From NCBI RefSeq assembly GCF_030384885.1, contig NZ_CP128614.1: a stretch of 64,000 nt of DNA. The stretch is one strand, 5' to 3'. Origin of the DNA: Escherichia coli (GTDB lineage: Bacteria; Pseudomonadota; Gammaproteobacteria; Enterobacterales; Enterobacteriaceae). Shown here one piece after another: positions 1-54,959 of this stretch; the first letter of the stretch is position 1, and every line of letters begins with the position of its first letter. The notes under the pieces were generated by a model, which was not told where the DNA came from, made no database searches, and saw only the letters and a program-made list of their open reading frames with translations. The translations under genes were made by a program, and so were the position numbers.

Positions 1-78
1 GAGGCGAGCGGCCTGAGGATCGGCTACCTGATCGATCCCGACTGCACGCTGGTGCGGCTGATCCAGAACCCCGACTGA
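1..78 (+). CDS. bleMBL: 3' end of a bleomycin-resistance (VOC/glyoxalase-fold) gene, probably ble(MBL); start lies outside the window
   Basis: Frame 1 is open from position 1 to TGA at 76-78 (…IGYLIDPDCTLVRLIQNPD*), a typical Ble-family C-terminus; trpF starts 4 bp downstream, as in blaNDM-ble-trpF arrays. Confidence 0.4.
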   Translation, partial: EASGLRIGYLIDPDCTLVRLIQNPD

Positions 79-82
79 CCGC

Positions 83-721
83 ATGCCCGCGAAAATCAAG
101 ATTTGCGGGATCAGCACACCCGAGGCGCTCGATGCGACCATCGCGGCGCGGGCGGACTATGCCGGGTTGGTGTTCTATCCAGCGTCGCCCCGTGCGGTTA
201 CGTCGAATGTCGCGGGCGCTTTGACATCGCGCGCAGCTGGCCAGATCGCCATGGTCGGTTTGTTCGTCGATGCGGATGATGCTGTCATCGCCGACGCACT
301 GGTGGCAGCCAAGCTGAACGCGCTGCAGCTGCACGGTTCGGAATCGCCCGAACGCGTGGCCCAGTTGCGCGCGCGGTTTGGCAAGCCGGTGTGGAAGGCG
401 CTGCCCGTCGCCAGCGCCAGCGATGTCGCACGCGCCGCAGCCTATGCCGGGGCGGCGGACTTGATCTTGTTCGACGCCAAGACCCCCAAAGGCGCGCTGC
501 CCGGCGGCATGGGGTTGGCGTTCGACTGGTCGCTGCTGGCCGGATATCGCGGTGCCTTGCCGTGGGGGCTGGCAGGCGGGCTAAATCCGACGAATGTTGC
601 CGAGGCGATTGCGCGCACCGGAGCGCCGCTGGTCGATACCTCCAGCGGCGTCGAAAGCGCGCCGGGCGTCAAGGATACCGACAAGATTACCAATTTCGCC
701 TTTGCGGTGCGCTTGGCCTAA
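83..721 (+). CDS. trpF: Phosphoribosylanthranilate isomerase
   Basis: 212-aa ORF with the TrpF (PRAI) fold signature; position between ble-like tail and dsbD/tat matches the conserved blaNDM downstream segment. Confidence 0.8.
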   Translation: MPAKIKICGISTPEALDATIAARADYAGLVFYPASPRAVTSNVAGALTSRAAGQIAMVGLFVDADDAVIADALVAAKLNALQLHGSESPERVAQLRARFGKPVWKALPVASASDVARAAAYAGAADLILFDAKTPKGALPGGMGLAFDWSLLAGYRGALPWGLAGGLNPTNVAEAIARTGAPLVDTSSGVESAPGVKDTDKITNFAFAVRLA

Positions 722-731
722 ATCGCGTCGA

Positions 732-1763
732 TCAATAGGCGTCGTTCAGCGCAAAGATCGGCTTGCGGGTGCGCCACTGCCCTCGGGTGAAGTCGGGAAA
801 ATCTAACGTGCGATTGCCCTCAGCAATCGATTGTTCCGACAGAGGCGTGATCGCGCTCCAGGCCAGCGCGTCGTAAATGTCGATTGGCATCGGGGCCTTG
901 GCCTTCAGCGCCTCGACAAAAGCGTGGATCACGAACCAGTCCATCCCGCCATGCCCGGCCCCTGCCGCCAGATCGGCGTAGCGTTTCCATAGCGGGTGAT
1001 CGTATTTCGCAAACCAGCCCTCGGCAGGCTCCCAGCGGTGCGGCTGTGGGCTCTTGCCCTCCAGATAGATCGACTTGTTGACGTCCATCCACAGCCCCTC
1101 GGTGCCTTGCACCCGAAAGCCGAGAGAATAGGGGCGCGGCAGCGAGGTGTCGTGGCACAGCATGATCGTTTCACCATTAGTGCAGCCGATCATGGTGTTG
1201 ACCACATCACCCAGTGCGAATTTCACCTCGGCGTTGGGATGATCGGCAGAGCCGTTCTTGACGACATAATCATGCAGCCCGCGCGCCTTACAGCCGAAGC
1301 CGCCAGCGCCCGCTTCGCCCGGCAACGCGACCTTCAGGGTGCGGGTCTGCGGCGGGTAGCACACGCCGGCATCGGCGCAGCCCTGGTACTTCACGGTCAG
1401 GGTGGTCGCGCTCGCGCCGGCCGCGGGCGTGCCGGTGAGGGTGCCGAGCAATTCCTTGCGGTAGGTTTCGACGTCGCCGAAGAATTCGTCGCGGTAGGCC
1501 TTGCCCTTCGGCAGCGCCATGGTCGCGCCGGTGAAGGCGGCATCGGCCTTGACCGAGGTGCGGTGCCGGTACAGGTAATAGCCGTCGGCGATCCGCCAGC
1601 GCACCTCGATGCGGTCCGGCGCGGTGGCCTGCGCGGACAGGACGAAGACCTCGTCGACCGGCGGCAGTTCGAAGTCCTGGGCGACGGCCGAGGTCGCGGG
1701 CAGCGCAAGCAGCAGGGCGAGCCCGGCCAGCCAGCGGCGCAGGCGGATCGTGGATGCGGTCAT
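732..1763 (-). CDS. dsbD: Twin-arginine signal protein with DsbD N-terminal-like domain (the tat/dsbD gene of blaNDM contexts)
   Basis: 343-aa ORF; N-terminus has an RR-containing signal peptide (RLRRWLAGLALLLALPATSAVA); convergent with trpF. Confidence 0.65.
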   Translation of the reverse strand: MTASTIRLRRWLAGLALLLALPATSAVAQDFELPPVDEVFVLSAQATAPDRIEVRWRIADGYYLYRHRTSVKADAAFTGATMALPKGKAYRDEFFGDVETYRKELLGTLTGTPAAGASATTLTVKYQGCADAGVCYPPQTRTLKVALPGEAGAGGFGCKARGLHDYVVKNGSADHPNAEVKFALGDVVNTMIGCTNGETIMLCHDTSLPRPYSLGFRVQGTEGLWMDVNKSIYLEGKSPQPHRWEPAEGWFAKYDHPLWKRYADLAAGAGHGGMDWFVIHAFVEALKAKAPMPIDIYDALAWSAITPLSEQSIAEGNRTLDFPDFTRGQWRTRKPIFALNDAY

Positions 1764-1843
1764 TGGCTCAGTTTACCGGTCGGCTCTCGGCGGCCAGCCA
1801 TTGCAGGTATTCGGGCAGGCCGGACGCGGCTTCGACCGCGAGC

Positions 1844-3997
1844 GGGTATAGGAAGTATAAACCACCTTTTTGCTCCTCATCCGAAGTATCTTACCTGAAA
1901 TTCCCTCACTCGTTTACCGCTCAAGCCCCAATTTTAACTGCCGGTCCAGCCTAAACCGCTCTAATAAGGTTCGATTTGGCGGTAAAATCTCTAGCCTGAT
2001 AGCTCGAGAGATACAAACTGCCCCACCGCCCCGTTTAAAAGTTGGCAGTGTTGAGCAGTGTTGGATTTGGGGTCGTCAGTCAAAGAGACGACTCTGTGAT
2101 GGATCGAACAGGCTGGGAGTCAGTGGCGGCGCTCGTTCTGGTGGCAGCTCACGCTGCTTGGCGGCATTCGCCTTGGCTGTTTTCTGTTTCAGATGCTTGA
2201 GAATCTGCTCAATGACCTTCGGATCTTCGATGCTGGCAATCACTTTGACGTGACCGCCGCAGTGTTCGCAGACTTCAATATCAATATTGAAGACTCGCTT
2301 GAGGCGTTGCATCCAGGTCATGGCGCGGTGGCGCTCTGCAGGACTCTTGTCACGCCAGTTAGTATCGAGACCTTCCGATTTGTCGGGCTTCTTGCCCCGC
2401 TTGGCGGGTGTTACTTGAACTCGGTGTTTGCTGTTCGGTGCAAAGACGCCGTGGAAGCGTGTGAGGTTGACTCGCGGCTTAGGTACCAACGCAGCGAGTT
2501 TGGCGATGAAGTCCAGCGGCTCGAAGATCACATGGGTGGTGCCATTGCGGTACGGAGTTTTGAGCTCGTAACGCACCTGCCCATTGGCGGTTAATGCCAG
2601 ACGTTTTTCTGAAACCGCTGGCCGACTAATGTAGCGACACAAGCGCTCAAGCTTATCCCGCTGATGCGCTTCGGCCATCACACCGGCGTGTAGCGAGAAA
2701 CCAGCATGGTTGGCTACTCGACTGCTTGAGTCGGCTTTATCCTCACGCCCTGGCAAGGTTTGCAGGGTGAAGACTTTGCGCCCTTGCTGGGGGCCGACGG
2801 CAATGCGATACGTAACCGAAGCACCATGTAATTGAGTCAGCGTATCGTCTTCGCCCTCTTCCAGTGTCAACCACGTATTCTCGGCATCACGCTCCAAAAT
2901 CCCACGCTTTTCCATGCAGCGAGCGATGCGATGGCTGAGGGTGTGAGCGAGCGTATTCAGCTCATCGTAAGTGGGTGCCTTGACACGATGGAAGCGTTGC
3001 TTGCCATAGTCATCTTCGGCATAGACACCATCGAGAAACAGCATGTGGTAGTGGACATTGAGATTTAGCGCGGAGCCAAAGCGTTGGATAAGAGTCACTG
3101 AGCCAGTTTGTGCAGAGGCTTTGGTGTAACCGGCTTTTTTGATCAGATGAGTTGAGAGTGTACGATAGACGATACTCAAGACCTGGCCCATCAGCTGGGG
3201 ATGGCGAGCCAGCAAAAAGCGTAGCTGGAAAGGAAAGCTGAGCACCCACTGGCGAATGGGCTCCTTGGGGAAGACTTCGTCTATCAGCAGCGCCGCACTC
3301 TCGGCCATCCGGCGGGCACCGCAGCTAGGGCAAAAGCCGCGTCGTTTACAGCTGAAGGCGACCAGACGCTCGTGATGACAATCCTCGCAGCGAACCCGCA
3401 TGAAACCATACTCCAGACGGCCACATTGGAGGAGGTCGTTGAATTCTTGTTGGATGTAGCGAGGCAGGTGTTGACCTTGGGCTTCGAGTGAGGCTTTGAA
3501 GGCTGGGTAGTGCTGCTCAACCAGCTGGTAGAGCAGCGTCTGGTCGGGTTGGTGGCGTTCGTAACCGTTTGTTTGAGTGGGCGATTGACTCGCCGTGGCG
3601 TTCCTTGCCAGCGACATGGGTATCCTCCGCTGATACTGTGGTTATGTACAGTATCAGCGGCTTGCGTTCAGACGTCCAGTCTGGCCCTAGACATCGCTAA
3701 ATGCTTAACCCGCAATAGCCCTCACGAGTTGTTATCAGCCACTACCGGTTGAGCGAGAAGGTTTTGGGTTCAGGGTGCTATTGCTCCACCAATCACAATA
3801 CTGAAGCCCCAACTGTTATCAGTTGGGGCTTTTTCTTGTCTGTTTGCGGCGGTTGCGTTTTATCGGTAGTCGTCGAGCTCTGCACCATCCCACATAAGAG
3901 CTTAACGGTGCGATCTTCAACGCCATCACACAAAACTTTCTTTTTCACGCACAGTCAACTTATTGGATGTTTTATTAACAACCCAAAAGGAGATATT
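1844..3997 (-). mobile_element. ISCR1: ISCR1 (IS91-like rolling-circle element); boundaries approximate
   Basis: Contains the 513-aa orf513 transposase; oriIS-like end (GGTTTATACTTCCTATACCC on the element strand) near 1844; placed immediately downstream of sul1 as in complex class 1 integrons. Confidence 0.8.
2076..3617 (-). CDS. ISCR1 transposase (orf513)
   Basis: 513-aa ORF beginning MSLARNATASQSPTQTNGYERHQPDQ…, matching the ISCR1 Orf513 protein as recalled. Confidence 0.93.
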   Translation of the reverse strand: MSLARNATASQSPTQTNGYERHQPDQTLLYQLVEQHYPAFKASLEAQGQHLPRYIQQEFNDLLQCGRLEYGFMRVRCEDCHHERLVAFSCKRRGFCPSCGARRMAESAALLIDEVFPKEPIRQWVLSFPFQLRFLLARHPQLMGQVLSIVYRTLSTHLIKKAGYTKASAQTGSVTLIQRFGSALNLNVHYHMLFLDGVYAEDDYGKQRFHRVKAPTYDELNTLAHTLSHRIARCMEKRGILERDAENTWLTLEEGEDDTLTQLHGASVTYRIAVGPQQGRKVFTLQTLPGREDKADSSSRVANHAGFSLHAGVMAEAHQRDKLERLCRYISRPAVSEKRLALTANGQVRYELKTPYRNGTTHVIFEPLDFIAKLAALVPKPRVNLTRFHGVFAPNSKHRVQVTPAKRGKKPDKSEGLDTNWRDKSPAERHRAMTWMQRLKRVFNIDIEVCEHCGGHVKVIASIEDPKVIEQILKHLKQKTAKANAAKQRELPPERAPPLTPSLFDPSQSRLFD

Positions 3998-4021
3998 TAG
4001 CGGGCGGCCGGAAGGTGAATG

Positions 4022-4861
4022 CTAGGCATGATCTAACCCTCGGTCTCTGGCGTCGCGACTGCGAAATTTCGCGAGGGTTTCCGAGAAGGTGATTGCGCTT
4101 CGCAGATCTCCAGGCGCGTGGGTGCGGACGTAGTCAGCGCCATTGCCGATCGCGTGAAGTTCCGCCGCAAGGCTCGCTGGACCCAGATCCTTTACAGGAA
4201 GGCCAACGGTGGCGCCCAAGAAGGATTTCCGCGACACCGAGACCAATAGCGGAAGCCCCAACGCCGACTTCAGCTTTTGAAGGTTCGACAGCACGTGCAG
4301 CGATGTTTCCGGTGCGGGGCTCAAGAAAAATCCCATCCCCGGATCGAGGATGAGCCGGTCGGCAGCGACCCCGCTCCGTCGCAAGGCGGAAACCCGCGCC
4401 TCGAAGAACCGCACAATCTCGTCGAGCGCGTCTTCGGGTCGAAGGTGACCGGTGCGGGTGGCGATGCCATCCCGCTGCGCTGAGTGCATAACCACCAGCC
4501 TGCAGTCCGCCTCAGCAATATCGGGATAGAGCGCAGGGTCAGGAAATCCTTGGATATCGTTCAGGTAGCCCACGCCGCGCTTGAGCGCATAGCGCTGGGT
4601 TTCCGGTTGGAAGCTGTCGATTGAAACACAGTGCATCTGATCGGACAGGGCGTCTAAGAGCGGCGCAATACGTCTGATCTCATCGGCCGGCGATACAGGC
4701 CTCGCGTCCGGATGGCTGGCGGCCGGTCCGACATCCACGACGTCTGATCCGACTCGCAGCATTTCGATCGCCGCGGTGACAGCGCCGGCGGGGTCTAGCC
4801 GCCGGCTCTCATCGAAGAAGGAGTCCTCGGTGAGATTCAGAATGCCGAACACCGTCACCAT
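4022..4861 (-). CDS. sul1: Sulfonamide-resistant dihydropteroate synthase Sul1
   Basis: Translation from the internal Met ([23 protein letters not shown]…) is Sul1; the ORF-track start at 4948 is an upstream extension. Confidence 0.95.
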
Positions 4862-5202
4862 GGCGTCGGCCTCCGCAGCGACTTCCACGATGGGGATCGG
4901 GCGAGCAAAAAGGCAGCAATTATGAGCCCCATACCTACAAAGCCCCACGCATCAAGCTTTTGCCCATGAAGCAACCAGGCAATGGCTGTAATTATGACGA
5001 CGCCGAGTCCCGACCAGACTGCATAAGCAACACCGACAGGGATGGATTTCAGAACCAGAGAAAGAAAATAAAATGCGATGCCATAACCGATTATGACAAC
5101 GGCGGAAGGGGCAAGCTTAGTAAAGCCCTCGCTAGATTTTAATGCGGATGTTGCGATTACTTCGCCAACTATTGCGATAACAAGAAAAAGCCAGCCTTTC
5201 AT
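4855..5202 (-). CDS. qacEdelta1: Truncated SMR quaternary-ammonium efflux protein QacEdelta1 (3'-conserved segment)
   Basis: 115-aa [30 protein letters not shown]… abutting the sul1 start. Confidence 0.95.
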
Positions 5203-5304
5203 GATATATCTCCCAATTTGTGTAGGGCTTATTATGCACGCTTAAAAATAATAAAAGCAGACTTGACCTGATAGTTTGGCTGTGAGCAATTATGTGCTTA
5301 GTGC

Positions 5305-5364
5305 ATCTAACGCCGGAGTTAAGCCGCCGCGCGTAGCGCGGTCGGCTTGAACGAATTGTTAGAC
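5305..5364 (-). other. attC (59-base element) of the aadA2 cassette
   Basis: Imperfect inverted repeat immediately after the aadA2 stop, with core sites GTCTAAC … GTTAGAT on the cassette strand. Confidence 0.55.
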
Positions 5365-5365
5365 A

Positions 5366-6157
5366 TCATTTACCAACTGACTTGATGATCTCGCCTTTCA
5401 CAAAGCGAATAAATTCTTCCAAGTGATCTGCGCGTGAGGCCAAGTGATCTTCTTTTTGTCCCAGATAAGCTTGCTTAGCTTCAAGTAAGACGGGCTGATA
5501 CTGGGCAGGTAGGCGTTTTATTGCCCAGTCGGCAGCGACATCCTTCGGCGCGATTTTGCCGGTTATTGCGCTGTACCAAATGCGGGACAACGTAAGCACT
5601 ACATTTCGCTCATCGCCGGCCCAGTCGGGCTGCGAGTTCCATAGCTTCAAGGTTTCCCTCAGCGCCTCGAATAGATCCTGTTCAGGAACCGGGTCAAAGA
5701 ATTCCTCCGCTGCCGGACCTACCAAGGCAACGCTATGTTCTCTTGCTTTTGTAAGCAGGATAGCTAGATCAATGTCGATCATGGCTGGCTCGAAGATACC
5801 CGCAAGAATGTCATTGCGCTGCCATTCTCCAAATTGCAGCTCGCGCTTAGCCGGATAACGCCACGGGATGATGTCGTCATGCACGACAAGGGTGACTTCT
5901 ATAGCGCGGAGCGTCTCGCTCTCGCCAGGGAAAGCCGAAGCCTCCATAAGATCATTGAGCAATGCTCGCCGCGTCGTTTCATCAAGCTTTACGGCCACAG
6001 TAACCAACAAATCAATATCGCTGTATGGCTTCAGGCCGCCATCCACTGCGGAGCCGTACAAATGCACGGCCAGCAACGTTGATTCCAGATGGCGCTCAAT
6101 GACGCTTAGCACCTCTGATAGTTGGTTCGAAATTTCGATGGTCACCGCTTCCCTCAT
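5366..6157 (-). CDS. aadA2: Aminoglycoside (3'')(9) adenylyltransferase AadA2 (streptomycin/spectinomycin resistance)
   Basis: 263-aa ORF MREAVTIEISNQLSEVLSVIERHLESTLLAVHLYGSAVDGGLKPYSDIDLL…, recognised as AadA2. Confidence 0.9.
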   Translation of the reverse strand: MREAVTIEISNQLSEVLSVIERHLESTLLAVHLYGSAVDGGLKPYSDIDLLVTVAVKLDETTRRALLNDLMEASAFPGESETLRAIEVTLVVHDDIIPWRYPAKRELQFGEWQRNDILAGIFEPAMIDIDLAILLTKAREHSVALVGPAAEEFFDPVPEQDLFEALRETLKLWNSQPDWAGDERNVVLTLSRIWYSAITGKIAPKDVAADWAIKRLPAQYQPVLLEAKQAYLGQKEDHLASRADHLEEFIRFVKGEIIKSVGK

Positions 6158-6162
6158 GATGT

Positions 6163-6453
6163 CTAACGGGCGAGGTAAGCCGACCGCAGAATGCGGGTCG
6201 GCTTGACCGAAATGTTAGAACCAGAAGCCAAAACGGATAACTTGAATTTGGCGACGGGCGCTAACCGTGAAAAAACGCTGCGCCACCGAGGCGGCACAGC
6301 ACTGCAAAAACGATAGCTGCTTGCGCTTGCTACGCAAGGGCTAGAGGCCAAAAAGACTGAAAACCTGCGCAGCCCATGCAGGCGAAGCCCGGAAAAAAGG
6401 CAAAACAGGCACTGAATAACGCCTGAAAAGCTAAATGCCGTTTGAATAAACAT
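6163..6453 (-). CDS. gcuF: Gene cassette of unknown function gcuF (orfF) of the dfrA12-gcuF-aadA2 array
   Basis: 96-aa ORF sitting between dfrA12 and aadA2 in the same orientation. Confidence 0.6.
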   Translation of the reverse strand: MFIQTAFSFSGVIQCLFCLFSGLRLHGLRRFSVFLASSPCVASASSYRFCSAVPPRWRSVFSRLAPVAKFKLSVLASGSNISVKPTRILRSAYLAR

Positions 6454-6564
6454 GAGCTAAATAAAGCTGGGTTTCAGTGGTGCTAACGTTGGACGTAACG
6501 AGAGCCGGAGCGCAGCGGAGGGAACCAAAATGCGCAGCATTTTGGCGTCCCGTTGACGGAATGG

Positions 6565-7062
6565 TTAGCCGTTTCGACGCGCATAAACGGAGTGGGTGTA
6601 CGGAATTACAGCTTGAATGGTTTCGGTTGAGACAAGCTCGAATTCTGTTTCGTTGAGCATTGGGAAGAAGGCGTCACCCTCGAAGGTTTGATGTACCTCA
6701 GATAGAAACACGCCGTGGGCGTGAGGTAGTGCCAGAGTGTATATCTCAGCTCCGCCCGCGACGTAGAGTTCATTGCCGAGTTCGGATGCCAAAGCGATAG
6801 CGTGCGACAGCGTTGAAACAACTACGCAGCCAGTGGCGCGGTAGTTAGCTTGGCGTGAGATTACCAATGTGTGACGGTTCGGTAGAGGCTTGCCGATAGA
6901 CTCAAAGGTCTTTCGCCCCATGACAACGACTTTTCCCTCAGTGAGTCTGCGAAAAATCTTCTGCTCACCCGGAATTTTCCAGGGGATATTAGGACCATTG
7001 CCAATAACCCGATTGGCTCCCATCGCAGCAACGAGATAAATGCGTACTGATTCCGAGTTCAT
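6565..7062 (-). CDS. dfrA12: Trimethoprim-resistant dihydrofolate reductase DfrA12
   Basis: 165-aa ORF MNSESVRIYLVAAMGANRVIGNGPNIPWKIPGEQKIFRRLTEGKVVVMGRKTF…, recognised as DfrA12. Confidence 0.92.
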   Translation of the reverse strand: MNSESVRIYLVAAMGANRVIGNGPNIPWKIPGEQKIFRRLTEGKVVVMGRKTFESIGKPLPNRHTLVISRQANYRATGCVVVSTLSHAIALASELGNELYVAGGAEIYTLALPHAHGVFLSEVHQTFEGDAFFPMLNETEFELVSTETIQAVIPYTHSVYARRNG

Positions 7063-7063
7063 A

Positions 7064-7135
7064 TGGCTAACTTTGTTTTAGGGCGACTGCCCTGCTGCGT
7101 AACATCGTTGCTGCTCCATAACATCAAACATCGAC
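7064..7135 (-). other. attI1 recombination site / first-cassette boundary (approximate)
   Basis: …CTAAAACAAAGTTAGCC followed by the dfrA12 ATG on the cassette strand, between Pc/intI1 and the first cassette. Confidence 0.5.
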
Positions 7136-7206
7136 CCACGGCGTAACGCGCTTGCTGCTTGGATGCCCGAGGCATAGACTGTACAAAAAAACAGTCATAA
7201 CAAGCC

Positions 7207-8075
7207 ATGAAAACCGCCACTGCGCCGTTACCACCGCTGCGTTCGGTCAAGGTTCTGGACCAGTTGCGTGAGCGCATACGCTACTTGCATTACAGCTTAC
7301 CAACCGAACAGGCTTATGTCCACTGGGTTCGTGCCTTCATCCGTTTCCACGGTGTGCGTCACCCGGCAACCTTGGGCAGCAGCGAAGTCGAGGCATTTCT
7401 GTCCTGGCTGGCGAACGAGCGCAAGGTTTCGGTCTCCACGCATCGTCAGGCATTGGCGGCCTTGCTGTTCTTCTACGGCAAGGTGCTGTGCACGGATCTG
7501 CCCTGGCTTCAGGAGATCGGAAGACCTCGGCCGTCGCGGCGCTTGCCGGTGGTGCTGACCCCGGATGAAGTGGTTCGCATCCTCGGTTTTCTGGAAGGCG
7601 AGCATCGTTTGTTCGCCCAGCTTCTGTATGGAACGGGCATGCGGATCAGTGAGGGTTTGCAACTGCGGGTCAAGGATCTGGATTTCGATCACGGCACGAT
7701 CATCGTGCGGGAGGGCAAGGGCTCCAAGGATCGGGCCTTGATGTTACCCGAGAGCTTGGCACCCAGCCTGCGCGAGCAGCTGTCGCGTGCACGGGCATGG
7801 TGGCTGAAGGACCAGGCCGAGGGCCGCAGCGGCGTTGCGCTTCCCGACGCCCTTGAGCGGAAGTATCCGCGCGCCGGGCATTCCTGGCCGTGGTTCTGGG
7901 TTTTTGCGCAGCACACGCATTCGACCGATCCACGGAGCGGTGTCGTGCGTCGCCATCACATGTATGACCAGACCTTTCAGCGCGCCTTCAAACGTGCCGT
8001 AGAACAAGCAGGCATCACGAAGCCCGCCACACCGCACACCCTCCGCCACTCGTTCGCGACGGCCTTGCTCCGCAG
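7207..8075 (+). pseudogene. intI1: intI1 truncated at its 3' end by IS26
   Basis: N-terminal ~289 aa of IntI1 ([44 protein letters not shown]…) run into the IS26 inverted repeat at 8076. Confidence 0.9.
7294..7322 (-). promoter_or_regulatory. Pc: Integron cassette promoter Pc, variant PcW with TGN-extended -10
   Basis: On the cassette strand: TGGACA, 17-bp spacer, then TGG-TAAGCT; the corresponding intI1 codon 32 encodes Pro (IntI1 P32/H39). Confidence 0.75.
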
Positions 8076-8895
8076 GGCACTGTTGCAAAGTTAGCGATGA
8101 GGCAGCCTTTTGTCTTATTCAAAGGCCTTACATTTCAAAAACTCTGCTTACCAGGCGCATTTCGCCCAGGGGATCACCATAATAAAATGCTGAGGCCTGG
8201 CCTTTGCGTAGTGCACGCATCACCTCAATACCTTTGATGGTGGCGTAAGCCGTCTTCATGGATTTAAATCCCAGCGTGGCGCCGATTATCCGTTTCAGTT
8301 TGCCATGATCGCATTCAATCACGTTGTTCCGGTACTTAATCTGTCGGTGTTCAACGTCAGACGGGCACCGGCCTTCGCGTTTGAGCAGAGCAAGCGCGCG
8401 ACCATAGGCGGGCGCTTTATCCGTGTTGATGAATCGCGGGATCTGCCACTTCTTCACGTTGTTGAGGATTTTACCCAGAAACCGGTATGCAGCTTTGCTG
8501 TTACGACGGGAGGAGAGATAAAAATCGACAGTGCGGCCCCGGCTGTCGACGGCCCGGTACAGATACGCCCAGCGGCCATTGACCTTCACGTAGGTTTCAT
8601 CCATGTGCCACGGGCAAAGATCGGAAGGGTTACGCCAGTACCAGCGCAGCCGTTTTTCCATTTCAGGCGCATAACGCTGAACCCAGCGGTAAATCGTGGA
8701 GTGATCGACATTCACTCCGCGTTCAGCCAGCATCTCCTGCAGCTCACGGTAACTGATGCCGTATTTGCAGTACCAGCGTACGGCCCACAGAATGATGTCA
8801 CGCTGAAAATGCCGGCCTTTGAATGGGTTCATGTGCAGCTCCATCAGCAAAAGGGGATGATAAGTTTATCACCACCGACTATTTGCAACAGTGCC
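8076..8895 (-). mobile_element. IS26: IS26 (820 bp), wild-type transposase allele
   Basis: 14-bp terminal inverted repeats GGCACTGTTGCAAA at 8076-8089 and 8882-8895; no flanking target-site duplication. Confidence 0.95.
8128..8832 (-). CDS. tnpA26: IS26 transposase Tnp26 (Gly184)
   Basis: Translation MNPFKGRHFQRDIILWAVRWYCKYGISYRELQ… with …KRIIGATLGF…. Confidence 0.95.
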   Translation of the reverse strand: MNPFKGRHFQRDIILWAVRWYCKYGISYRELQEMLAERGVNVDHSTIYRWVQRYAPEMEKRLRWYWRNPSDLCPWHMDETYVKVNGRWAYLYRAVDSRGRTVDFYLSSRRNSKAAYRFLGKILNNVKKWQIPRFINTDKAPAYGRALALLKREGRCPSDVEHRQIKYRNNVIECDHGKLKRIIGATLGFKSMKTAYATIKGIEVMRALRKGQASAFYYGDPLGEMRLVSRVFEM

Positions 8896-9217
8896 CTCAA
8901 TAACGTGATCGAGGCCGATCACGGAAAGCTCAAGATACTGATCAAGCCGGTGCGCGGTTTCAAATCGATCCCCACGGCCTATGCCACGATCAAGGGATTC
9001 GAAGTCATGCGAGCCCTGCGCAAAGGACAGGCTCGCCCCTGGTGCCTGCAGCCCGGCATCAGGGGCGAGGTGCGCCTTGTGGAGAGAGCTTTTGGCATTG
9101 GGCCCTCGGCGCTGACGGAGGCCATGGGCATGCTCAACCACCATTTCGCAGCAGCCGCCTGATCGGCGCAGAGCGACAGCCTACCTCTGACTGCCGCCAA
9201 TCTTTGCAACAGAGCCC
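8896..9217 (+). mobile_element. IS6100: IS6100 3'-terminal fragment, truncated by IS26
   Basis: Encodes the C-terminal ~88 aa of an IS6-family transposase (…ALRKGQARPWCLQPGIRGEVRLVERAFGIGPSALTEAMGMLNHHFAAAA*) and ends with the IS6100-type inverted repeat TTTGCAACAGAGCC at 9204-9217. Confidence 0.85.
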
Positions 9218-9654
9218 GCCGTGCTAGTCTGCTCGGTGATGGTGGAGTGAAGCCAACCCGCAATCGGGTTATGAATCTGCATCGCGATTCGCAATCAGCT
9301 GTCTCTTGAGCATGTCGAACTCCTGCGATGTTATCTCGCCGTGCTCGTGCTGCTACACCAACTTGTCCAACTCATCCGCCACACCGCTCCCCACCACCTG
9401 CGATGGCCAGGTTGTTTGCTGGGCGCATTGGCGGAGTATCGTCTCGACCCGGGACACCCACACCGGCACAACCTTACGGGAGTGATTCACTGTCAAAGAA
9501 TCGGCCCGGTGCTCTGACGCAAGTATCGGGATGGTCACCATTTGTAAGCCGTAGACCTGAGTGGTGATCAAGACTTCGATACCACCGACCGTACCGGTAC
9601 TAATCGACGACGGTCGTGTTCGTCGCCTGCCGCAGGGACTCTGCACACCTCCGT

Positions 9655-10239
9655 TTACGCATGTGCCTGGAGGAGTTGGAAATCGTCGTGTTCGGGAAAC
9701 ATTAAACACAGGATGGCAGCGATCTGAGCCAGCACATGATCAGCTAGCTCACCATCCGGATCGACGGCCCACTGCATCGTCGCGCCAGCGATGACCGAGT
9801 GCAGGAGCAACTCAGCTGCCGCAGGAGCACCTGGGGGCAGTCGCTTGCGGATCCCCTCCACCACCGCGCGGTTCCGCTGGATCGCAAGCGTGCGTAGCTC
9901 CGGCACCTGGAGCTCGTACCAGGAGATGAGATAGTTCACCGAGAAGTCGTTGCGAGTGTTCATGCTCCGAACGAGCACCTGCAAAAATTCCCAGAGCCCT
10001 TGCGGCCCTGCGCCTATCGGTATCGCATTCAGGTAATGCCGCACCTGCTCGACGCCGCGCTCCATCATCCTCACCAGCAGCGTATCGCGGTTGGTGAAGC
10101 GCTGGATTAACGCTGCGCGGGAGAGCCCCACCTCCTTTGCTACTCCGCTGAGCGTGAACTCTATGGGACCGCAACGCTTCAGCACTACGGTGGCGGCCTC
10201 GAGTACCTCGTCATCGGACTTGAGCTTGGGGCGGGGCAT
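9655..10239 (-). CDS. mphR(A): TetR-family repressor MphR(A)
   Basis: 194-aa TetR-like ORF directly downstream of mrx and mph(A) in the canonical order. Confidence 0.88.
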   Translation of the reverse strand: MPRPKLKSDDEVLEAATVVLKRCGPIEFTLSGVAKEVGLSRAALIQRFTNRDTLLVRMMERGVEQVRHYLNAIPIGAGPQGLWEFLQVLVRSMNTRNDFSVNYLISWYELQVPELRTLAIQRNRAVVEGIRKRLPPGAPAAAELLLHSVIAGATMQWAVDPDGELADHVLAQIAAILCLMFPEHDDFQLLQAHA

Positions 10240-11477
10240 CAGTGTTCACCTTCTGTATGGGTTGGGGCGGAGGCTGTGGCTGCCGCCGCCATTGTAGCAA
10301 ATTGAAGACGGAGCGAGAGTAGAGCCACGAGCCCCGCAAACACGGCCGATACAACGAGGCCAGGGAGCGGACCAGCAAGGTCGACAAACGCGCCGGCCGC
10401 AAGCATAACCATGGGCGAGGCTGACAGCATCACCGCCGAGACCGTGCCGAGTACCCGGCCGAGAAGTTCTGGCGGCGTGCGGTTGTAGATGGCAGCGTTG
10501 AGAATGGGAGAGACTGAGCCGGTCAGCAGTCCCACGAGCGCGCCCAACAACATCAGCACCGGCACGCCTGGCAACTGTGAAAGCAGAAGCGAGCCCACCG
10601 CAGAGCCACAAAATGCCACCGCCAGCCAGTTCTGCGCTGATATCCGGGCGCCGACCGACGCATGAATGGCAATGCCAAGGAGACCACCAGCCCCCATCAT
10701 TGAGGAGAACAGCCCGAGCTCTGCTACTTGGCGTCCTGCATCTACAAACAGCGCAGGCATGATGACGCTGCCGTTGGCGCCAACGATGCCCACGAAGATC
10801 ATCACTATACCAAAGAGAGGGCGCAGCAGGGGTTCGCTCCAGAGAAAAGCGACGCCGGCGCGCATGGAGAGAGTCGCCGTCGTGGTCATCGTCCGAGCGG
10901 CACGCGCGGGAAGCACCCACGCGCCGAGCAGACCTGCAAGGACGGAGCAGAACGCCGTCAGCCCGAGCGTTGGCGCAGCGCCAAGCAGGCCGATTGCGGC
11001 CCCCCCAAGGGCCGGGCCACCTAGAATCGCGACGTTCCCGATCACCGCTTTCAGTGACGAGACGCGCTCAACGGAGAGCCCGGCGACGTGGCCGAGTTTG
11101 GGCAGCTCACTGTCCTGCGCGGCCATACCGGGTGCGTCGAACGCAGCACCGAGCACCACGCAAGCGATCAGCCCAGTGTTCGAGAGGGCGCCAACGGCAT
11201 CGAGCAGTGGGATGCTCGCCATGGCCACGCCGCCCACCACACCCGAGATCAATGCGACGGGCGCGCGCCCGAACCGATCGACGAGGCCACCACCAACCCA
11301 CGCGCCGATGATGGTCGCGATGACGCTGCTAGCGGCCGTGGCGCCCGCCCAGGCCGCGCTCTTTGTATGAGACAGGACGAACCATGGAAGCGCGAGGGCC
11401 GCCACCGCGTTGCCGATCCGGAAGAGAAAGGTCGCCGCGAACAGCGTCGCGAGCGGGCTATATCGACGTTCGCTCAT
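10239..11477 (-). CDS. mrx: MFS-type membrane protein Mrx
   Basis: 412-aa multi-transmembrane ORF between mph(A) and mphR(A). Confidence 0.88.
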   Translation of the reverse strand: MSERRYSPLATLFAATFLFRIGNAVAALALPWFVLSHTKSAAWAGATAASSVIATIIGAWVGGGLVDRFGRAPVALISGVVGGVAMASIPLLDAVGALSNTGLIACVVLGAAFDAPGMAAQDSELPKLGHVAGLSVERVSSLKAVIGNVAILGGPALGGAAIGLLGAAPTLGLTAFCSVLAGLLGAWVLPARAARTMTTTATLSMRAGVAFLWSEPLLRPLFGIVMIFVGIVGANGSVIMPALFVDAGRQVAELGLFSSMMGAGGLLGIAIHASVGARISAQNWLAVAFCGSAVGSLLLSQLPGVPVLMLLGALVGLLTGSVSPILNAAIYNRTPPELLGRVLGTVSAVMLSASPMVMLAAGAFVDLAGPLPGLVVSAVFAGLVALLSLRLQFATMAAAATASAPTHTEGEH

Positions 11478-12379
11478 TCCGCTGCGGCGAGCTGCGCCTT
11501 CGCCGCAGCGAGGTACTCTTCGTTACCCGAGTCGAGGGCGAAGAGTGCGTAGGTGACCGCCCCGAACGCAAGGCGCTCCGCGATGTGGTGGGCGAGCCGC
11601 GGCCACACCCGGCCACCGGCCGCTTCATACGTGAGGAGGAGCTTCGCGAGCCCCTCTTCACCAAAGACCATAAGGTGCGCGGCCATGTCGATGGCAGGGT
11701 CATCAACGCGGGCCTCGCTCCAGTCGATCATCCCGCTGACGCGCTCCGTGTTGTCGATGAGCACATGGCCCACGTAGAGATCGCCATGCACCACCACGGA
11801 GAAATCTGGCCACGACGAATCGTCGTCGAGCCAGCGCTGCCACCGGTGGAGGCGCTTGTCGTTCACCACGAACTCGCGTCGGACGCGGTCAACGTCGTCG
11901 GCCACCTTCTGACGGGCCTGCGTCGGTGTACGGATGAGCATCCCCGCATCCACGGCGGCGGAAATGGGGACGGCATGCAGGGCGGCGAGCGCGGTCGCGA
12001 AGCTCTCCGCGAAGACCTCCGAGTCCTGCGGCACGACCCAGTCGGGCGTGGACGAACCAGGCTGGATGACCATCGCAGTCGAGTCTTCGAGCATGGGATA
12101 GGCAACGAGCTCGGCGTTGGCCACGCGCCAGTCCGGCACCGCGAACGGCAGGCGATTCTTGAGCATTGCCAGCACCCGCGCCTCTGGTTCGACCTTCGCG
12201 CTTACCTCGGCTCGGCGCGGGATGCGCAGCACCCACCGACGTCCATCGTCGACGGTGGCGATCACGATCCTATAGTCGAGCCCAAGCTCATTGACAGTCA
12301 GCGGGCCATGGAGCTTGAGCCCATGTCGGGCTGCAAGTGCGTACAGTTGGGAGGTATCGGCGGTCGTGACTACGGTCAT
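11474..12379 (-). CDS. mph(A): Macrolide 2'-phosphotransferase Mph(A)
   Basis: 301-aa ORF MTVVTTADTSQLYALAARHGLKLHGPLTVNELGLDYRIVIATVDDGRRWVLRIPRR…, recognised as Mph(A). Confidence 0.95.
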   Translation of the reverse strand: MTVVTTADTSQLYALAARHGLKLHGPLTVNELGLDYRIVIATVDDGRRWVLRIPRRAEVSAKVEPEARVLAMLKNRLPFAVPDWRVANAELVAYPMLEDSTAMVIQPGSSTPDWVVPQDSEVFAESFATALAALHAVPISAAVDAGMLIRTPTQARQKVADDVDRVRREFVVNDKRLHRWQRWLDDDSSWPDFSVVVHGDLYVGHVLIDNTERVSGMIDWSEARVDDPAIDMAAHLMVFGEEGLAKLLLTYEAAGGRVWPRLAHHIAERLAFGAVTYALFALDSGNEEYLAAAKAQLAAAE

Positions 12380-12448
12380 GATTCACTCCTGAGGGCTTGA
12401 CGGGTTTAGCCACCTAAATGTAACAGTCACGTCGGTTATATTCAATCC

Positions 12449-13268
12449 GGCACTGTTGCAAAGTTAGCGATGAGGCAGCCTTTTGTCTTATTCAAAGGCC
12501 TTACATTTCAAAAACTCTGCTTACCAGGCGCATTTCGCCCAGGGGATCACCATAATAAAATGCTGAGGCCTGGCCTTTGCGTAGTGCACGCATCACCTCA
12601 ATACCTTTGATGGTGGCGTAAGCCGTCTTCATGGATTTAAATCCCAGCGTGGCGTTGATTATCCGTTTCAGTTTGCCATGATCGCATTCAATCACGTTGT
12701 TCCGGTACTTAATCTGTCGGTGTTCAACGTCAGACGGGCACCGGCCTTCGCGTTTGAGCAGAGCAAGCGCGCGACCATAGGCGGGCGCTTTATCCGTGTT
12801 GATGAATCGCGGGATCTGCCACTTCTTCACGTTGTTGAGGATTTTACCCAGAAACCGGTATGCAGCTTTGCTGTTACGACGGGAGGAGAGATAAAAATCG
12901 ACAGTGCGGCCCCGGCTGTCGACGGCCCGGTACAGATACGCCCAGCGGCCATTGACCTTCACGTAGGTTTCATCCATGTGCCACGGGCAAAGATCGGAAG
13001 GGTTACGCCAGTACCAGCGCAGCCGTTTTTCCATTTCAGGCGCATAACGCTGAACCCAGCGGTAAATCGTGGAGTGATCGACATTCACTCCGCGTTCAGC
13101 CAGCATCTCCTGCAGCTCACGGTAACTGATGCCGTATTTGCAGTACCAGCGTACGGCCCACAGAATGATGTCACGCTGAAAATGCCGGCCTTTGAATGGG
13201 TTCATGTGCAGCTCCATCAGCAAAAGGGGATGATAAGTTTATCACCACCGACTATTTGCAACAGTGCC
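12449..13268 (-). mobile_element. IS26: IS26 variant copy (820 bp) with Tnp26 G184N
   Basis: Same terminal repeats at 12449-12462 and 13255-13268; differs from the copy at 8076-8895 by GG to AA in codon 184. Confidence 0.93.
12501..13205 (-). CDS. tnpA26: IS26 transposase, G184N allele
   Basis: Translation identical to the first copy except …KRIINATLGF…. Confidence 0.93.
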   Translation of the reverse strand: MNPFKGRHFQRDIILWAVRWYCKYGISYRELQEMLAERGVNVDHSTIYRWVQRYAPEMEKRLRWYWRNPSDLCPWHMDETYVKVNGRWAYLYRAVDSRGRTVDFYLSSRRNSKAAYRFLGKILNNVKKWQIPRFINTDKAPAYGRALALLKREGRCPSDVEHRQIKYRNNVIECDHGKLKRIINATLGFKSMKTAYATIKGIEVMRALRKGQASAFYYGDPLGEMRLVSRVFEM

Positions 13269-13412
13269 ACGCAAAGACGTAATGAGCAGTGTATCCCCTG
13301 CCACAATACCCTCTTCAGGGATGCTGTCAGTGGACGTCCAGTACTGACCCGCCAGCAAAGAATGAAATCGCTCTAAACGGTCAATGCTATTTTTGCTGAC
13401 CAGGTCACCCAT
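13269..13412 (-). pseudogene. 5' fragment of a backbone gene cut by the IS26 right end
   Basis: Minus-strand ATG at 13410-13412 opens a frame (MGDLVSKNSIDRLERFHSLLAGQYWTSTDSIPEEG…) that runs straight into the IS26 terminal repeat at 13268. Confidence 0.35.
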
Positions 13413-13662
13413 ATACTTTTCCTTCCAGATTCGTGTGTTAGGTGAATCATACCAGATTGCCCTTGCCGTCTAATAACGCAGAAAACTGTGAATCCAAAAT
13501 TCCTTAAATTCAAACCTGTCCAATATAAAAGATGGCTCTTTTTCTTATCCAGTGTTAAGCGATAATGCTCAATTTTATTTCATTATTGTCAGAATCAAAA
13601 TAATCTGAAAATAAAAAAGGCTTCAGAATTGAAGCCTCTATATTATACAACGTGAATGTATT

Positions 13663-14019
13663 TTATTTATCTTTCACCGGGTTCATTTCCCAGTATCTTT
13701 CACGTACGTTTTCTTGGCAATGGTCCGCTCGCTCCGGCGTGTCCCTTTTACGAGTAGCAAATGCTTCAATTACGGCATTCAAGTCTTTTTCTTTGATTTT
13801 AGATCCAACAGGCAAGTTTTCTTCAAACTCAGTCCTTACCAGTTCTTTCGTTTTTTTATAATCGGTTTCACTTTGGATTTCAGGTTTTAAACAAATATCG
13901 GCAACCATCACATCTGATTTGCCCGGGATCGGTTTTTTCCCGTTTTCAGATGCAAGGACCGCAGAGGAGGTAAAGGCGACAGACAGAGTTGCACATAACA
14001 GAAGGTATTTTAATTTCAT
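13663..14019 (-). CDS. Hypothetical secreted protein (signal peptide)
   Basis: 118-aa ORF with N-terminal signal sequence MKLKYLLLCATLSVAFTSSAVLA. Confidence 0.5.
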   Translation of the reverse strand: MKLKYLLLCATLSVAFTSSAVLASENGKKPIPGKSDVMVADICLKPEIQSETDYKKTKELVRTEFEENLPVGSKIKEKDLNAVIEAFATRKRDTPERADHCQENVRERYWEMNPVKDK

Positions 14020-51970: not shown

Positions 51971-53309
51971 CATAAGCGCTAACTTAAGGGTTGAACCATC
52001 TGAAGAATGCGACGCCTCGGTGCCTCGTTAAGACGATGCCTCGCGTTCTTCAATTGCGTTTTGTAGGCTGTCAGGGATACTGTCCCACGAATGGCCACCT
52101 GTAAGCTCCAGATGACCATTTTTGTTATTCTCCACAACGAGTTAGTTCTTCTTTTCGGATCCGGCACTTCTGGGGGGGAAATCCAGCGATGGCTGGATTA
52201 TGTCGTCAATTAAAAATGCGGCGAGTAGATTAGCAAATATCCACGCTTTCGCGAGTTCAGGTTCCTTTGCACGCAAAGCATCCAGGTGCAGCAAACTTTT
52301 GAGCCGCTTAAAAGCCAGTTCAATTTGCCATCGCAGACGGTAACAATCAGCCACTTGCTCTGCTGAATATTCATCTTCCGGTAATGATGTTAGCAATAGC
52401 ACATGGCCCGCTGCTTCCAGCGTTTCCGCCTGAACTACTCGTCCTTTTCGACGATTCTCGCTGAGCAGTCGGGTTTTACTGATTAATGCTTTTTCGGGAG
52501 GAAGTGATACGGCAATGAGACGTGCCGGAAAGGGAGCTCCGGCTTTTTTATTACCTGAATTGCCTATCATTACAGTGGTTTCACCGTTCTTACCGCAATC
52601 CAGCCCGCGCAGAAAACCCATCATGTCAAAGCGCATTCCTTCTGCAGTTAACCAGCGCAATCCTCGCCAGTGAACCCGGACGATATAATCAGCTTCTCCA
52701 AAAGCAAGTGAGCGGATACATTCGGGACGCGAACCGAATCCCCGGTCAGCAATGCGTATCTCGTCTGCCGTTTGCGCAAATCGGTCCAGCCGTTCAGCGT
52801 CTCTGCTGTCGGTTAGCTCAAAATCAGTGAACTGACAGGTATGAGGATCATATCCCATATGTAGTCGCCATTCAGCGCTGCCGCCCCCGGGCGCACTGAT
52901 TGCTGTTCCATCGACAAGACGCAATCTCTTTCCGCTTGTACAACCCGTAACTGCGGCGCGTACAGCAAGTGTTTGTGCGGCAAGTATGCCAAACCAGTCG
53001 GCGGCATTCCGCAGCCGCTTCAGGAGAGCCACGTCAGATAATGTTGCAACGTCATGGAGCTGAGCCCATGCAGTGACTTCACGTAATGACATCCCCCCGG
53101 GGCCGTAAGCCAGCCCCAGACGTAGCAGAGTTGCAGCATCACGAATTTCGCGGCGGCGGGTTAGAGCCCCGGCATTACGTGCCGAAGTATCCAGTTCTTC
53201 GGGCTTACCAATATGGGCCAGAATTGCTGACCAGTTATCGTGAGAGTAATTCATCGGCACGTTAAATCATATCAGGCGTAATACCACAACCCTTAAGTTA
53301 GCGCTTATG
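51971..53309 (-). mobile_element. IS186: IS186 (IS4 family) with 11-bp target-site duplication GGGGTTGCCCC
   Basis: 23-bp terminal inverted repeats CATAAGCGCTAACTTAAGGGTTG at both ends; direct repeats GGGGTTGCCCC at 51960-51970 and 53310-53320. Confidence 0.9.
52142..53254 (-). CDS. IS186 transposase
   Basis: Translation MNYSHDNWSAILAHIGKPEELDTSARNAGALTRRREIRD… matching IS186 transposase as recalled. Confidence 0.9.
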   Translation of the reverse strand: MNYSHDNWSAILAHIGKPEELDTSARNAGALTRRREIRDAATLLRLGLAYGPGGMSLREVTAWAQLHDVATLSDVALLKRLRNAADWFGILAAQTLAVRAAVTGCTSGKRLRLVDGTAISAPGGGSAEWRLHMGYDPHTCQFTDFELTDSRDAERLDRFAQTADEIRIADRGFGSRPECIRSLAFGEADYIVRVHWRGLRWLTAEGMRFDMMGFLRGLDCGKNGETTVMIGNSGNKKAGAPFPARLIAVSLPPEKALISKTRLLSENRRKGRVVQAETLEAAGHVLLLTSLPEDEYSAEQVADCYRLRWQIELAFKRLKSLLHLDALRAKEPELAKAWIFANLLAAFLIDDIIQPSLDFPPRSAGSEKKN

Positions 53310-53332
53310 GGGGTTGCCCCCCTCTTTGTCAG

Positions 53333-53548
53333 CTACTTACCGGATTCGTAGGCCAGGATAGCAAATACCTCCCTTGTTCCGTCTTTCATCCGCAACTCGC
53401 AAAGCGAGTTTCGTGTGAGCCAGGTGAATATCAACAGCGTTAAACAAACTATTAATATGCACAAAACAATGGGTTGGTTCGGCATTTTCATGGCCTTCTT
53501 CTCCTTGCATTTAAGCAGGCAAGAGGCTACGCTGTGTGTGACTAGCAT
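53333..53548 (-). CDS. Small membrane protein between IS186 and IS150
   Basis: 71-aa hydrophobic ORF; its terminator hairpin is the IS186 target. Confidence 0.3.
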
Positions 53549-53589
53549 ACAGGGGCCTCGGGTTGTACTGACCCCAGAAAGTTGGACAG

Positions 53590-54441
53590 TTAAACACGAG
53601 GCATATAGGTCTGATTCCGATATTCAATTGGAGTCAGACCTTTTAATTTCAGGCTAATTCTTCTGCTGTTGTAGTATTCAATATATTCCGTAACAGCATC
53701 CTTCAGCTCGCTTATATTACTGAACTCATCAAGATAAAAACACTCCGACTTTAAGGTTCCAAAGAAACACTCCACCACAGCATTATCCAGACAATTGCCT
53801 TTTCTGGACATGCTTTGTTTAATACCATGTTCTTTAAGGATATTTTGATATCTTCTCATACGATACTGCCATCCCTGGTCAGAGTGCAGAACAGGATGCT
53901 CGTGAGGATTAAGCTTTTTGAATGCCTGATCGAGCATATTCTCGACCATGTTCATCACTGGTCTTTCCGAAAGGCTGTAAGAAATAACTTCGTTGTTGAA
54001 GAGATCTATTACTGGAGACAAATACAGCTTGCGCCCATTGACTGCAAATTCAGTAACATCGGTAACCCACTTCTCGTTTGGCCGCGTAGCCTTGAAATCT
54101 CTTTGGAGAACATTGGGGGCGGTTTGCCCTACCTCTCCTCTGTAAGAGCGGTATCGCTTGACCTTAATCGCTGCCTTCAGTGAGAGGATTCCCATCAGGC
54201 GCTGAACAGCTTTATGGTTAATCTGTTTCCCTTCTCGATGAAGAGACAGCGTTACCCTACGGTATCCGTATCGGCCTCTATTCTCATGATAAATCTCACC
54301 AATACGCTTTTTAACGTCCGCATACTTGTCAGGCTTGCTGAGAGCCTTTAGATGGTAATAAAACGTACTGCGCGGTATCTCCGCAGCCCTGAGAAGCTCA
54401 TCAAGAGGATAAAACTGCCTTAGCTCGTTGAGTACTTTCAC
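53590..54441 (-). CDS. insK: IS150 OrfB (InsK-like DDE integrase domain; OrfAB made by -1 frameshift)
   Basis: 283-aa ORF overlapping orfA by 4 bp in the -1 frame. Confidence 0.9.
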
Positions 54442-54959
54442 TTTTTCGTGGGATGAGCTAAGGCTTTCAGCTTTTTTAGATACACAAGCCGCGTTTCAAG
54501 AAATCGAACTTGCCTTTCAAGATCCTCAATGCGTCGGTCTTTTGACAGCTCCAATGCTGATGCCGCTTTTTCTGGATCAACTGATATTGCAATGTTTCTT
54601 TTGGTGCCAATCTTGAGCGCGCGTAAACCAGCTTCTCCGCGCTCTTCATAAACCTTCAGCCACCTGGCTACAGAACCACTACCAGCAAGCATAAAGTGAG
54701 CAGCAGCCTGATTAAGGGACATGTGCTGCTCGATCACCGCTTTCACGACCTTAATACGCAACTCAGGATCAGCACTAACACCTTTAGGTTTGGGAATTAA
54801 ACCTTTTTCTCCATGTTTTTCATAGAGGGCAACCCATGTCCTGACCTGGGTTCGGGGGACACCAAAACGTGCCGAGATGATCCTGTAACCATCATCAGTA
54901 GTGAAGTAGTGATTCACGACTTCAAGGCGCTTTTCAAAAGGGTATTTTGGCTTTGACAT
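54438..54959 (-). CDS. insJ: IS150 OrfA (InsJ-like, HTH)
   Basis: 173-aa ORF MSKPKYPFEKRLEVVNHYFTTDDGYRIISARFGVPRTQVRTWVALYEKHG…. Confidence 0.9.
   Translation of the reverse strand: MSKPKYPFEKRLEVVNHYFTTDDGYRIISARFGVPRTQVRTWVALYEKHGEKGLIPKPKGVSADPELRIKVVKAVIEQHMSLNQAAAHFMLAGSGSVARWLKVYEERGEAGLRALKIGTKRNIAISVDPEKAASALELSKDRRIEDLERQVRFLETRLVYLKKLKALAHPTKK

Follow-up and report, generated by a model that had tools for sequence, protein, structure and literature searches.

A truncated IncHI2 backbone gene next to a blaNDM and mph(A) region of an Escherichia coli plasmid is probably an inherited IS26 deletion endpoint

Introduction

Elements of the Tn3 family are expected to duplicate 5 bp of their target when they insert. 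IS26 leaves another kind of scar when it transposes replicatively within one molecule, in cis (adjacent deletion): classically, the copy then lies flush with its target, has no target duplication and has lost the adjacent DNA. Adjacent deletion mediated by IS26 has reportedly been described for IS26 and IS6-family elements by Harmer and Hall and by He et al.

Both kinds of element shape the resistance regions of IncHI2 plasmids, which are remodeled by IS26 and truncated Tn1721 (PMC9019673, PMC8407110); the movement of IS26 is discussed in the same two papers. In IncHI2 regions seeded by Tn1721/TnAs1, one edge consists of a Tn1721-type 38-bp inverted repeat with a short direct repeat of the target, and IS26, ISCR and integron modules have remade what lies inside (PMC9019673, PMC7355605). 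A passage of PMC9019673 that cites Pong et al. 2019 credits a variant, IS26-v1 (Tnp26 G184N), with raised cointegration activity.

We analyzed 64,000 nt of E. coli DNA (RefSeq assembly GCF_030384885.1, contig NZ_CP128614.1; the whole stretch is called the window below), in which an IS26 cuts a backbone gene. The resistance region has the same kind of edge and the same kind of interior as the Tn1721/TnAs1-seeded regions. It differs from them in that the right Tn1721 end has been wholly lost together with 596 nt of backbone, and its insertion site, in a 388-codon ORF by umuDC, is not described in PMC9019673 or PMC7355605. At the right edge, the locus has every feature of an IS26 adjacent deletion: a complete IS26 flush with a truncated gene, no 8-bp duplication, loss of the adjacent DNA and a position at the edge of a region with multiple IS26 copies. 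We see no difference in kind from the known process, except that here the event is read from sequence and the excised circle is hypothetical.

Results

The window is identical to positions 128001-192000 of NZ_CP128643.1 (pWL164-blaNDM-6, 227,970 bp, IncHI2) save for 2 bases of one transposase codon, and we used this record as a guide to the sequence outside the window. NZ_CP128643.1 carries an IncHI2 backbone (repHI2, trhB/V/N/U/I/H and htdO/T), and PLSDB types the plasmids matching the backbone of the window as IncHI2A/MOBH. The flanking backbone contains two small ORFs, umuD, umuC and dsbA, of which umuDC-dsbA is a shared context that does not define IncHI2. A literature search on pWL164 found no paper describing the plasmid. 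Elsewhere in the backbone, at 52142-54959 (record 180142-182959), IS421 and IS150 insertions surround a hok-type toxin gene and a truncated DUF5431 gene; these are further insertion sequence scars, unrelated to the resistance region.

The resistance region spans 40.5 kb (40,505 bp) between two pieces of one backbone ORF. Its cargo comprises blaCTX-M-14, fosA3, aac(3)-IVa, aph(4)-Ia, sul2, floR, blaNDM-6, an ISCR1/class 1 integron module and mph(A). The features on either side of its right edge are as follows.

1-8075: blaNDM/ISCR1/class 1 integron module, with a truncated intI1 at its right side
8076-8895, minus strand: second IS26, standard sequence, direct orientation, with the truncated intI1 on one side and the mph(A) module on the other
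8896-12448, minus strand: mph(A) module, including a truncated IS6100, inward of the junction IS26 (from the ORFs and the RefSeq record)
9655-10239, minus strand: mphR(A), part of the mph(A) module
10239-11477, minus strand: mrx(A), part of the mph(A) module
11474-12379, minus strand: mph(A), part of the mph(A) module
12449-13268, minus strand: complete IS26 of 820 bp, at the right end of the resistance region (a RefSeq transposase is annotated at the same position in the near-identical record)
12501-13205, minus strand: tnp26 (from the ORF list and its translation)
12654-12656, minus strand: codon 184 of tnp26, AAC (Asn) instead of GGC (Gly), as in IS26-v1 or G184N (from comparison of copies)
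13255-13268, no strand assigned: IS26 terminal inverted repeat TTTGCAACAGTGCC, which makes the junction with the backbone
13242-13412, minus strand: 56-aa fusion ORF (48 backbone codons plus 8 from the IS26 terminal repeat, with the stop at 13242), RefSeq hypothetical protein WP_152919720.1
13269-13412, minus strand: 5′ remnant (48 codons, 144 nt) of an uncharacterized IncHI2 backbone ORF, identical to residues 1-48 of a 388-aa ORF
13413-13551, minus strand: retained upstream region of the truncated ORF, with consensus matches only (AAGGA and a weak sigma-70-like match)
13616-13639, no strand assigned: terminator-like hairpin in the sequence between this upstream region and the next backbone gene
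13663-14019, minus strand: next backbone gene, beyond the hairpin

The IS26 at the junction is complete. Perfect 14-bp terminal repeats (GGCACTGTTGCAAA) are present at 12449-12462 and 13255-13268, and the element encodes a single 234-aa DDE transposase, Tnp26 (MNPFKGRHF...VFEM), for which RefSeq has WP_001067855.1 at the same CDS position in NZ_CP128643.1. Backbone sequence starts at 13269, flush with the end of IS26 at 13268.

The sequence-only reading held that the right end of this IS26 abuts an ORF that starts at 13412 and is cut at 13268, 48 codons in. Coordinates and translation agree with this: the ATG lies at 13412-13410 on the minus strand, and the frame reaches the end of IS26 after exactly 144 nt. 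A Shine-Dalgarno-like AAGGA lies 8 nt ahead of the ATG, and one weak sigma-70-like match at 13551-13522 is a putative promoter; both are consensus matches. Since the frame runs on for 8 codons into the IS26 repeat, the annotated 56-aa product WP_152919720.1 is most likely an annotation by-product.

The same frame is intact in related plasmids. All 48 residues are identical to the N terminus of a 388-aa ORF (WP_000502667.1) of p28322-1 (locus L007), and 47/48 match a 1111-aa ORF (WP_000502666.1) of R478-type IncHI2 plasmids (locus L003). In both loci, DNA homology is unbroken through the cut point, with flanks that align base for base (...CTTCAACGTA|ACGCAAAGACG...). The intact 1111-codon region occurs in 301 PLSDB records and the intact 388-codon ORF in 16; the p28322-1 lineage is the closest to the window (99.8% identity). 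Because the start codon and N terminus are conserved and the homologues run intact through the cut, the ORF at 13412 is, by these comparisons, a genuine, truncated backbone gene. The gene is uncharacterized. Searches of both intact proteins against Pfam and NCBIfam assigned no family, the only hits being sub-threshold (Phycobilisome, E = 0.053; TraX, E = 0.054).

This comparison also bears on the reading in which the 48-codon frame is a chance ORF and IS26 landed in intergenic backbone DNA. Short ORFs are common locally, with 46 of at least 30 aa within the 4 kb examined, such that a 48-codon frame by itself carries no weight, and the lack of a family assignment also fits a chance frame. Against it stand the extensions of the frame to 388 and 1111 codons in the 16 and 301 related plasmids and the conservation of 47 or all 48 N-terminal residues. 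With a continuation present in related backbones, we consider a chance ORF almost inconceivable.

The 388-codon ORF has a history of its own. Positions 6401-7003 of L007 align to positions 1-603 of L003, and the alignment resumes from L007 position 7001 onwards at L003 position 4426 onwards, so that relative to R478-type plasmids 3.8 kb are missing from the p28322-1-type locus. The 388-aa ORF consists of residues 1-239 of the 1111-aa protein joined in frame to residues 15-163 of a 163-aa ORF, a predicted membrane protein with which its tail is identical. A CTT microhomology is present at the fusion point (L007:6553-7719 compared with L003:1-5144). As judged from this alignment, the 388-aa "gene" is a deletion-derived chimera, and therefore its 3′ remnant in pWL164 (WP_181728339.1) would descend from the second, 163-aa gene.

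The sequence-only reading suggested that the missing 3′ part of the truncated gene may lie beyond the other end of the resistance region, and proposed to look for it in the rest of the plasmid, especially upstream of blaNDM. Within the window, no remainder was found there; searches with the R478-type and p28322-1-type references matched nothing besides the sequence from 13269 onwards. In the whole of NZ_CP128643.1, only two pieces of the 388-codon ORF region are present: the 144-nt 5′ piece at record 141269-141412 (141269-141568 with its upstream sequence), and a 3′ piece consisting of the last 427 nt and downstream DNA at record 100184-100763, which lies outside the window at a distance of 40.5 kb, on the same strand. 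The middle 596 nt (L007:6980-7575) were found nowhere in this plasmid. Thus, part of the gene does lie beyond the far end, as proposed, but the two pieces are not contiguous, and the 3′ remnant adjoins not IS26 but the 38-bp inverted repeat GGGGAGCCCGCAGAATTCGGAAAAAATCGTACGCTAAG of a Tn1721/TnAs1-type transposon.

Both ends of this transposon can be seen among related plasmids. The left junction (...ATCTTAAA|GGGGAGCCCGCAGAATTC...) is present in L008 and L010, and the right junction (...GCGGTTCCCCC|TTAAATACC...) in L006 and L009 (p19M12 and pM160133_p1), where the right-end inverted repeat is a variant, GGGGGAACCGCAG... Read together, the two junctions show that the insertion duplicated the 5 bp TTAAA (L007:6975-6979), as expected of a Tn3-family element, which the 38-bp repeats also fit. 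Read from these junctions, the original disruption of the ORF is a Tn1721/TnAs1-type insertion at codon 247. In NZ_CP128643.1, the right end of Tn1721 is absent and the left end lies outside the window.

The relative orientation of remnant and junction varies among plasmids. In several junction-bearing IncHI2 plasmids (NZ_CP034788.1, NZ_MN915011.1 and NZ_CP022165.1), the Tn1721-ended 3′ remnant is on the opposite strand from the codon-48 junction, which implies IS26-mediated inversions of large segments. In others, and in pWL164, remnant and junction are on the same strand, 10-60 kb apart.

The junction is widespread. A 200-bp query centered on it found the exact IS26|backbone junction, contiguous, in 316 PLSDB records; this query is too short to be bridged by separate pieces, while a broader count of 323 included two-piece alignments of the pM160133_p1 type. 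The left junction of Tn1721 was found in 614 records. As these counts sample closely related plasmids, they do not represent independent events; the two figures are consistent with Tn1721 inserting first and the IS26 deletion following later. In pM160133_p1, IS26 lies just 56 bp inside the right end of Tn1721 and the ORF is intact from the Tn1721 site onwards. This plasmid represents a less advanced state and is a candidate intermediate, and it may possibly be a side branch.

The cargo inside the junction differs among the plasmids that carry it. The same junction occurs in L001, L002 and L008 with sul1 (pSTM6-275), aac(3)-II (pEGY1-MCR-1) or other cargo (pJH51-1) on its inner side. The arrangement mph(A)-IS26-backbone was found in 0 PLSDB records and in 1/5,426 complete E. 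coli genomes, that of NZ_CP128643.1. Because 316 IncHI2 plasmids of PLSDB share this exact junction and carry other cargo beside it, the junction predates blaNDM. Position 13268|13269 is thus the right edge of the resistance region, as the sequence-only reading had it, but it is not where the blaNDM region joined the backbone.

Three observations bear on how the junction formed. The junction IS26 is flanked by TTCAATCC on its inner side and ACGCAAAG on the backbone side, and these do not constitute an 8-bp target duplication. The 8-bp duplication that had been proposed as a check was not found elsewhere in the plasmid either: among the 8-bp flanks of all five IS26 copies of NZ_CP128643.1, none match each other, ACGCAAAG or its reverse complement CTTTGCGT. 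This lack is no argument against the element being IS26, since copies involved in a deletion or recombination are expected to show it. Finally, the reciprocal junction, in which the gene runs through ACGCAAAG into IS26 (the ...CAACGTAACGCAAAG|IS26 type), was found in 0 PLSDB records with a synthetic query in one IS26 orientation.

Given the loss of 596 nt and the lack of a matching 8-bp flank at any IS26 of the plasmid, we read 13268|13269 as the endpoint of an IS26-mediated adjacent deletion that arose once, in an ancestor of a large IncHI2 sub-lineage, was inherited and predates the acquisition of blaNDM; we hold this to be very probable. Direct insertion at codon 48 of an intact gene, by IS26 or an IS26-bounded region at the time blaNDM arrived, would also place a 3′ remnant of the same ORF on the same strand directly outside the other end of the region, where one is found. 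That remnant should then be contiguous with codon 48 and bear an 8-bp duplication next to IS26, whereas it adjoins a Tn1721-type repeat with a 5-bp duplication and begins 596 nt further on. No plasmid IS26 with the expected flank and no PLSDB record with the reciprocal junction turned up, and the codon-48 junction is present in 316 plasmids without this blaNDM/mph(A) arrangement. We regard this scenario as very improbable. Thus, of the insertion or deletion by IS26 that had been proposed from the sequence, deletion is the best explanation.

The deletion could also have taken two events. IS26 might have inserted at codon 48 with an 8-bp duplication and then recombined, homologously or through Tnp26, with a directly oriented IS26 inside the resistance region, so that the DNA between the two was lost together with one copy of the duplication. 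The scar would be exactly the one observed, the same as from a single step, and directly oriented partners are abundant in such regions (4/5 IS26 copies of this plasmid share the orientation of the junction copy). This route requires two events where one suffices, and its intermediate was not found in PLSDB in the one IS26 orientation queried, although such an intermediate could have been short-lived. We consider it unlikely, and favor adjacent deletion in one step.

Inside the junction, the blaNDM and mph(A) modules resemble those of IncF plasmids. blaNDM lies just left of the start of the window (record 126897-127709) and is annotated by RefSeq as allele NDM-6. Positions 1-13268 match IncF blaNDM-5 plasmids such as pFUJ80154-1 (NZ_AP024688.1) at 99.9-100%. 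The order in pFUJ80154-1 is IS6100-mphR-mrx-mph(A)-IS26-blaNDM-ble-trpF-...-ISCR1-sul1-qacEdelta1-aadA2-dfrA12-intI1(truncated)-IS26. In comparison, the two modules of the window stand in circularly permuted order, IS26 cuts IS6100 at 8895|8896, the host replicon is IncHI2 and the annotated allele is NDM-6. A query with the IS26|IS6100(truncated) junction returned 268 records, a figure contaminated by joined alignment pieces. The aadA2 cassette at 5320-6157 (record 133319-134157) is annotated by RefSeq as a frameshifted pseudogene in the near-identical record.

The modules are bounded by IS26 copies at record 125582, 136076 and 140449. As these three copies are in direct orientation, the data fit a model in which IS26-bounded units were taken up beside a resident boundary IS26, by IS26-IS26 recombination or targeted conservative integration, which would leave the outer junction unaltered.

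The sequence-only reading was also correct in calling the junction IS26 a variant. TT at 12655-12656, in place of CC, is the only difference between this copy and the other IS26 of the window (8076-8895); on the minus strand, the change is GG to AA and yields Tnp26 G184N. This is the two-base change, to Asn184, of IS26-v1. The junction IS26 copies of pEGY1-MCR-1 and pJH51-1 have one extra substitution, at IS26 position 362, that is absent from the window copy. CC is present at the two bases in every IS26 of NZ_CP128643.1, where all five complete copies are of the standard (Gly184) type, and also in L001, L005 and L009. Thus, the window differs at codon 184 from a plasmid to which it is otherwise identical.

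We considered whether the junction IS26 is a simple chimera of a resident v1 copy and a standard IS26 that came in. We did not adopt this, because one crossover with a pEGY1/pJH51-type copy should give the reverse of the pattern seen (TT at IS26 positions 207-208, C at 362). Since the only two differences in 64 kb fall exactly on codon 184, the junction IS26 may have switched between standard and G184N alleles within one plasmid lineage, either because IS26 copies underwent gene conversion or because another copy replaced the resident one; we offer this tentatively and think it rather unlikely. The 2-nt difference could be due instead to ambiguity in assembly or polishing among six near-identical insertion sequence copies, or to a different version of the record.

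Discussion

A sequence of five steps would account for the locus. In an ancestral R478-type backbone, ORFs of 1111, 171 and 163 codons lay beside umuDC. A 3.8-kb deletion then joined codon 239 of the 1111-codon ORF in frame to codon 15 of the 163-codon ORF to create the 388-codon chimera. Next, a Tn1721/TnAs1-type transposon inserted in codon 247, duplicating TTAAA, and the resistance region grew inside the transposon. Comparison among the plasmids shows these three steps, as it does the absence of the 596 nt and of a target duplication.

In the fourth step, Tn1721 would have lost its right end, and the ORF 596 nt, to an IS26 on the right side of the region. Judging by the established behavior of IS26, the element probably transposed replicatively within the molecule into ACGCAAAG and the DNA in between was lost as a circle, which would leave IS26 flush with codon 48 and no target duplication. 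In the fifth, also modeled on what is established for IS26, cargo inside the resident IS26 would have been exchanged repeatedly, through IS26-IS26 recombination or targeted conservative integration of translocatable units. In the plasmid studied here, the incoming piece would have been an IncF-type segment, blaNDM...intI1(truncated)-IS26-IS6100(truncated)-mphR-mrx-mph(A).

IS26 deletion endpoints of this kind are well understood; the case is known biology that leaves the understanding of IS26 and IncHI2 plasmids unchanged, and its practical value is modest. Two annotated proteins, WP_152919720.1 (56 aa) and WP_181728339.1 (128 aa), can be flagged as gene fragments. A large group of IncHI2 plasmids (316 PLSDB records) can be recognized by the exact IS26|ACGCAAAG junction, which marks their lineage. 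If the allele switching considered above did occur, the IS26 at the edge of IncHI2 resistance regions would be a docking site under active exchange, and sibling plasmids would differ in its state of activity. For the plasmid described here, the deletion model means that the blaNDM/mph(A) segment was probably recruited at a pre-existing IS26 docking site and not by a fresh insertion into the backbone.
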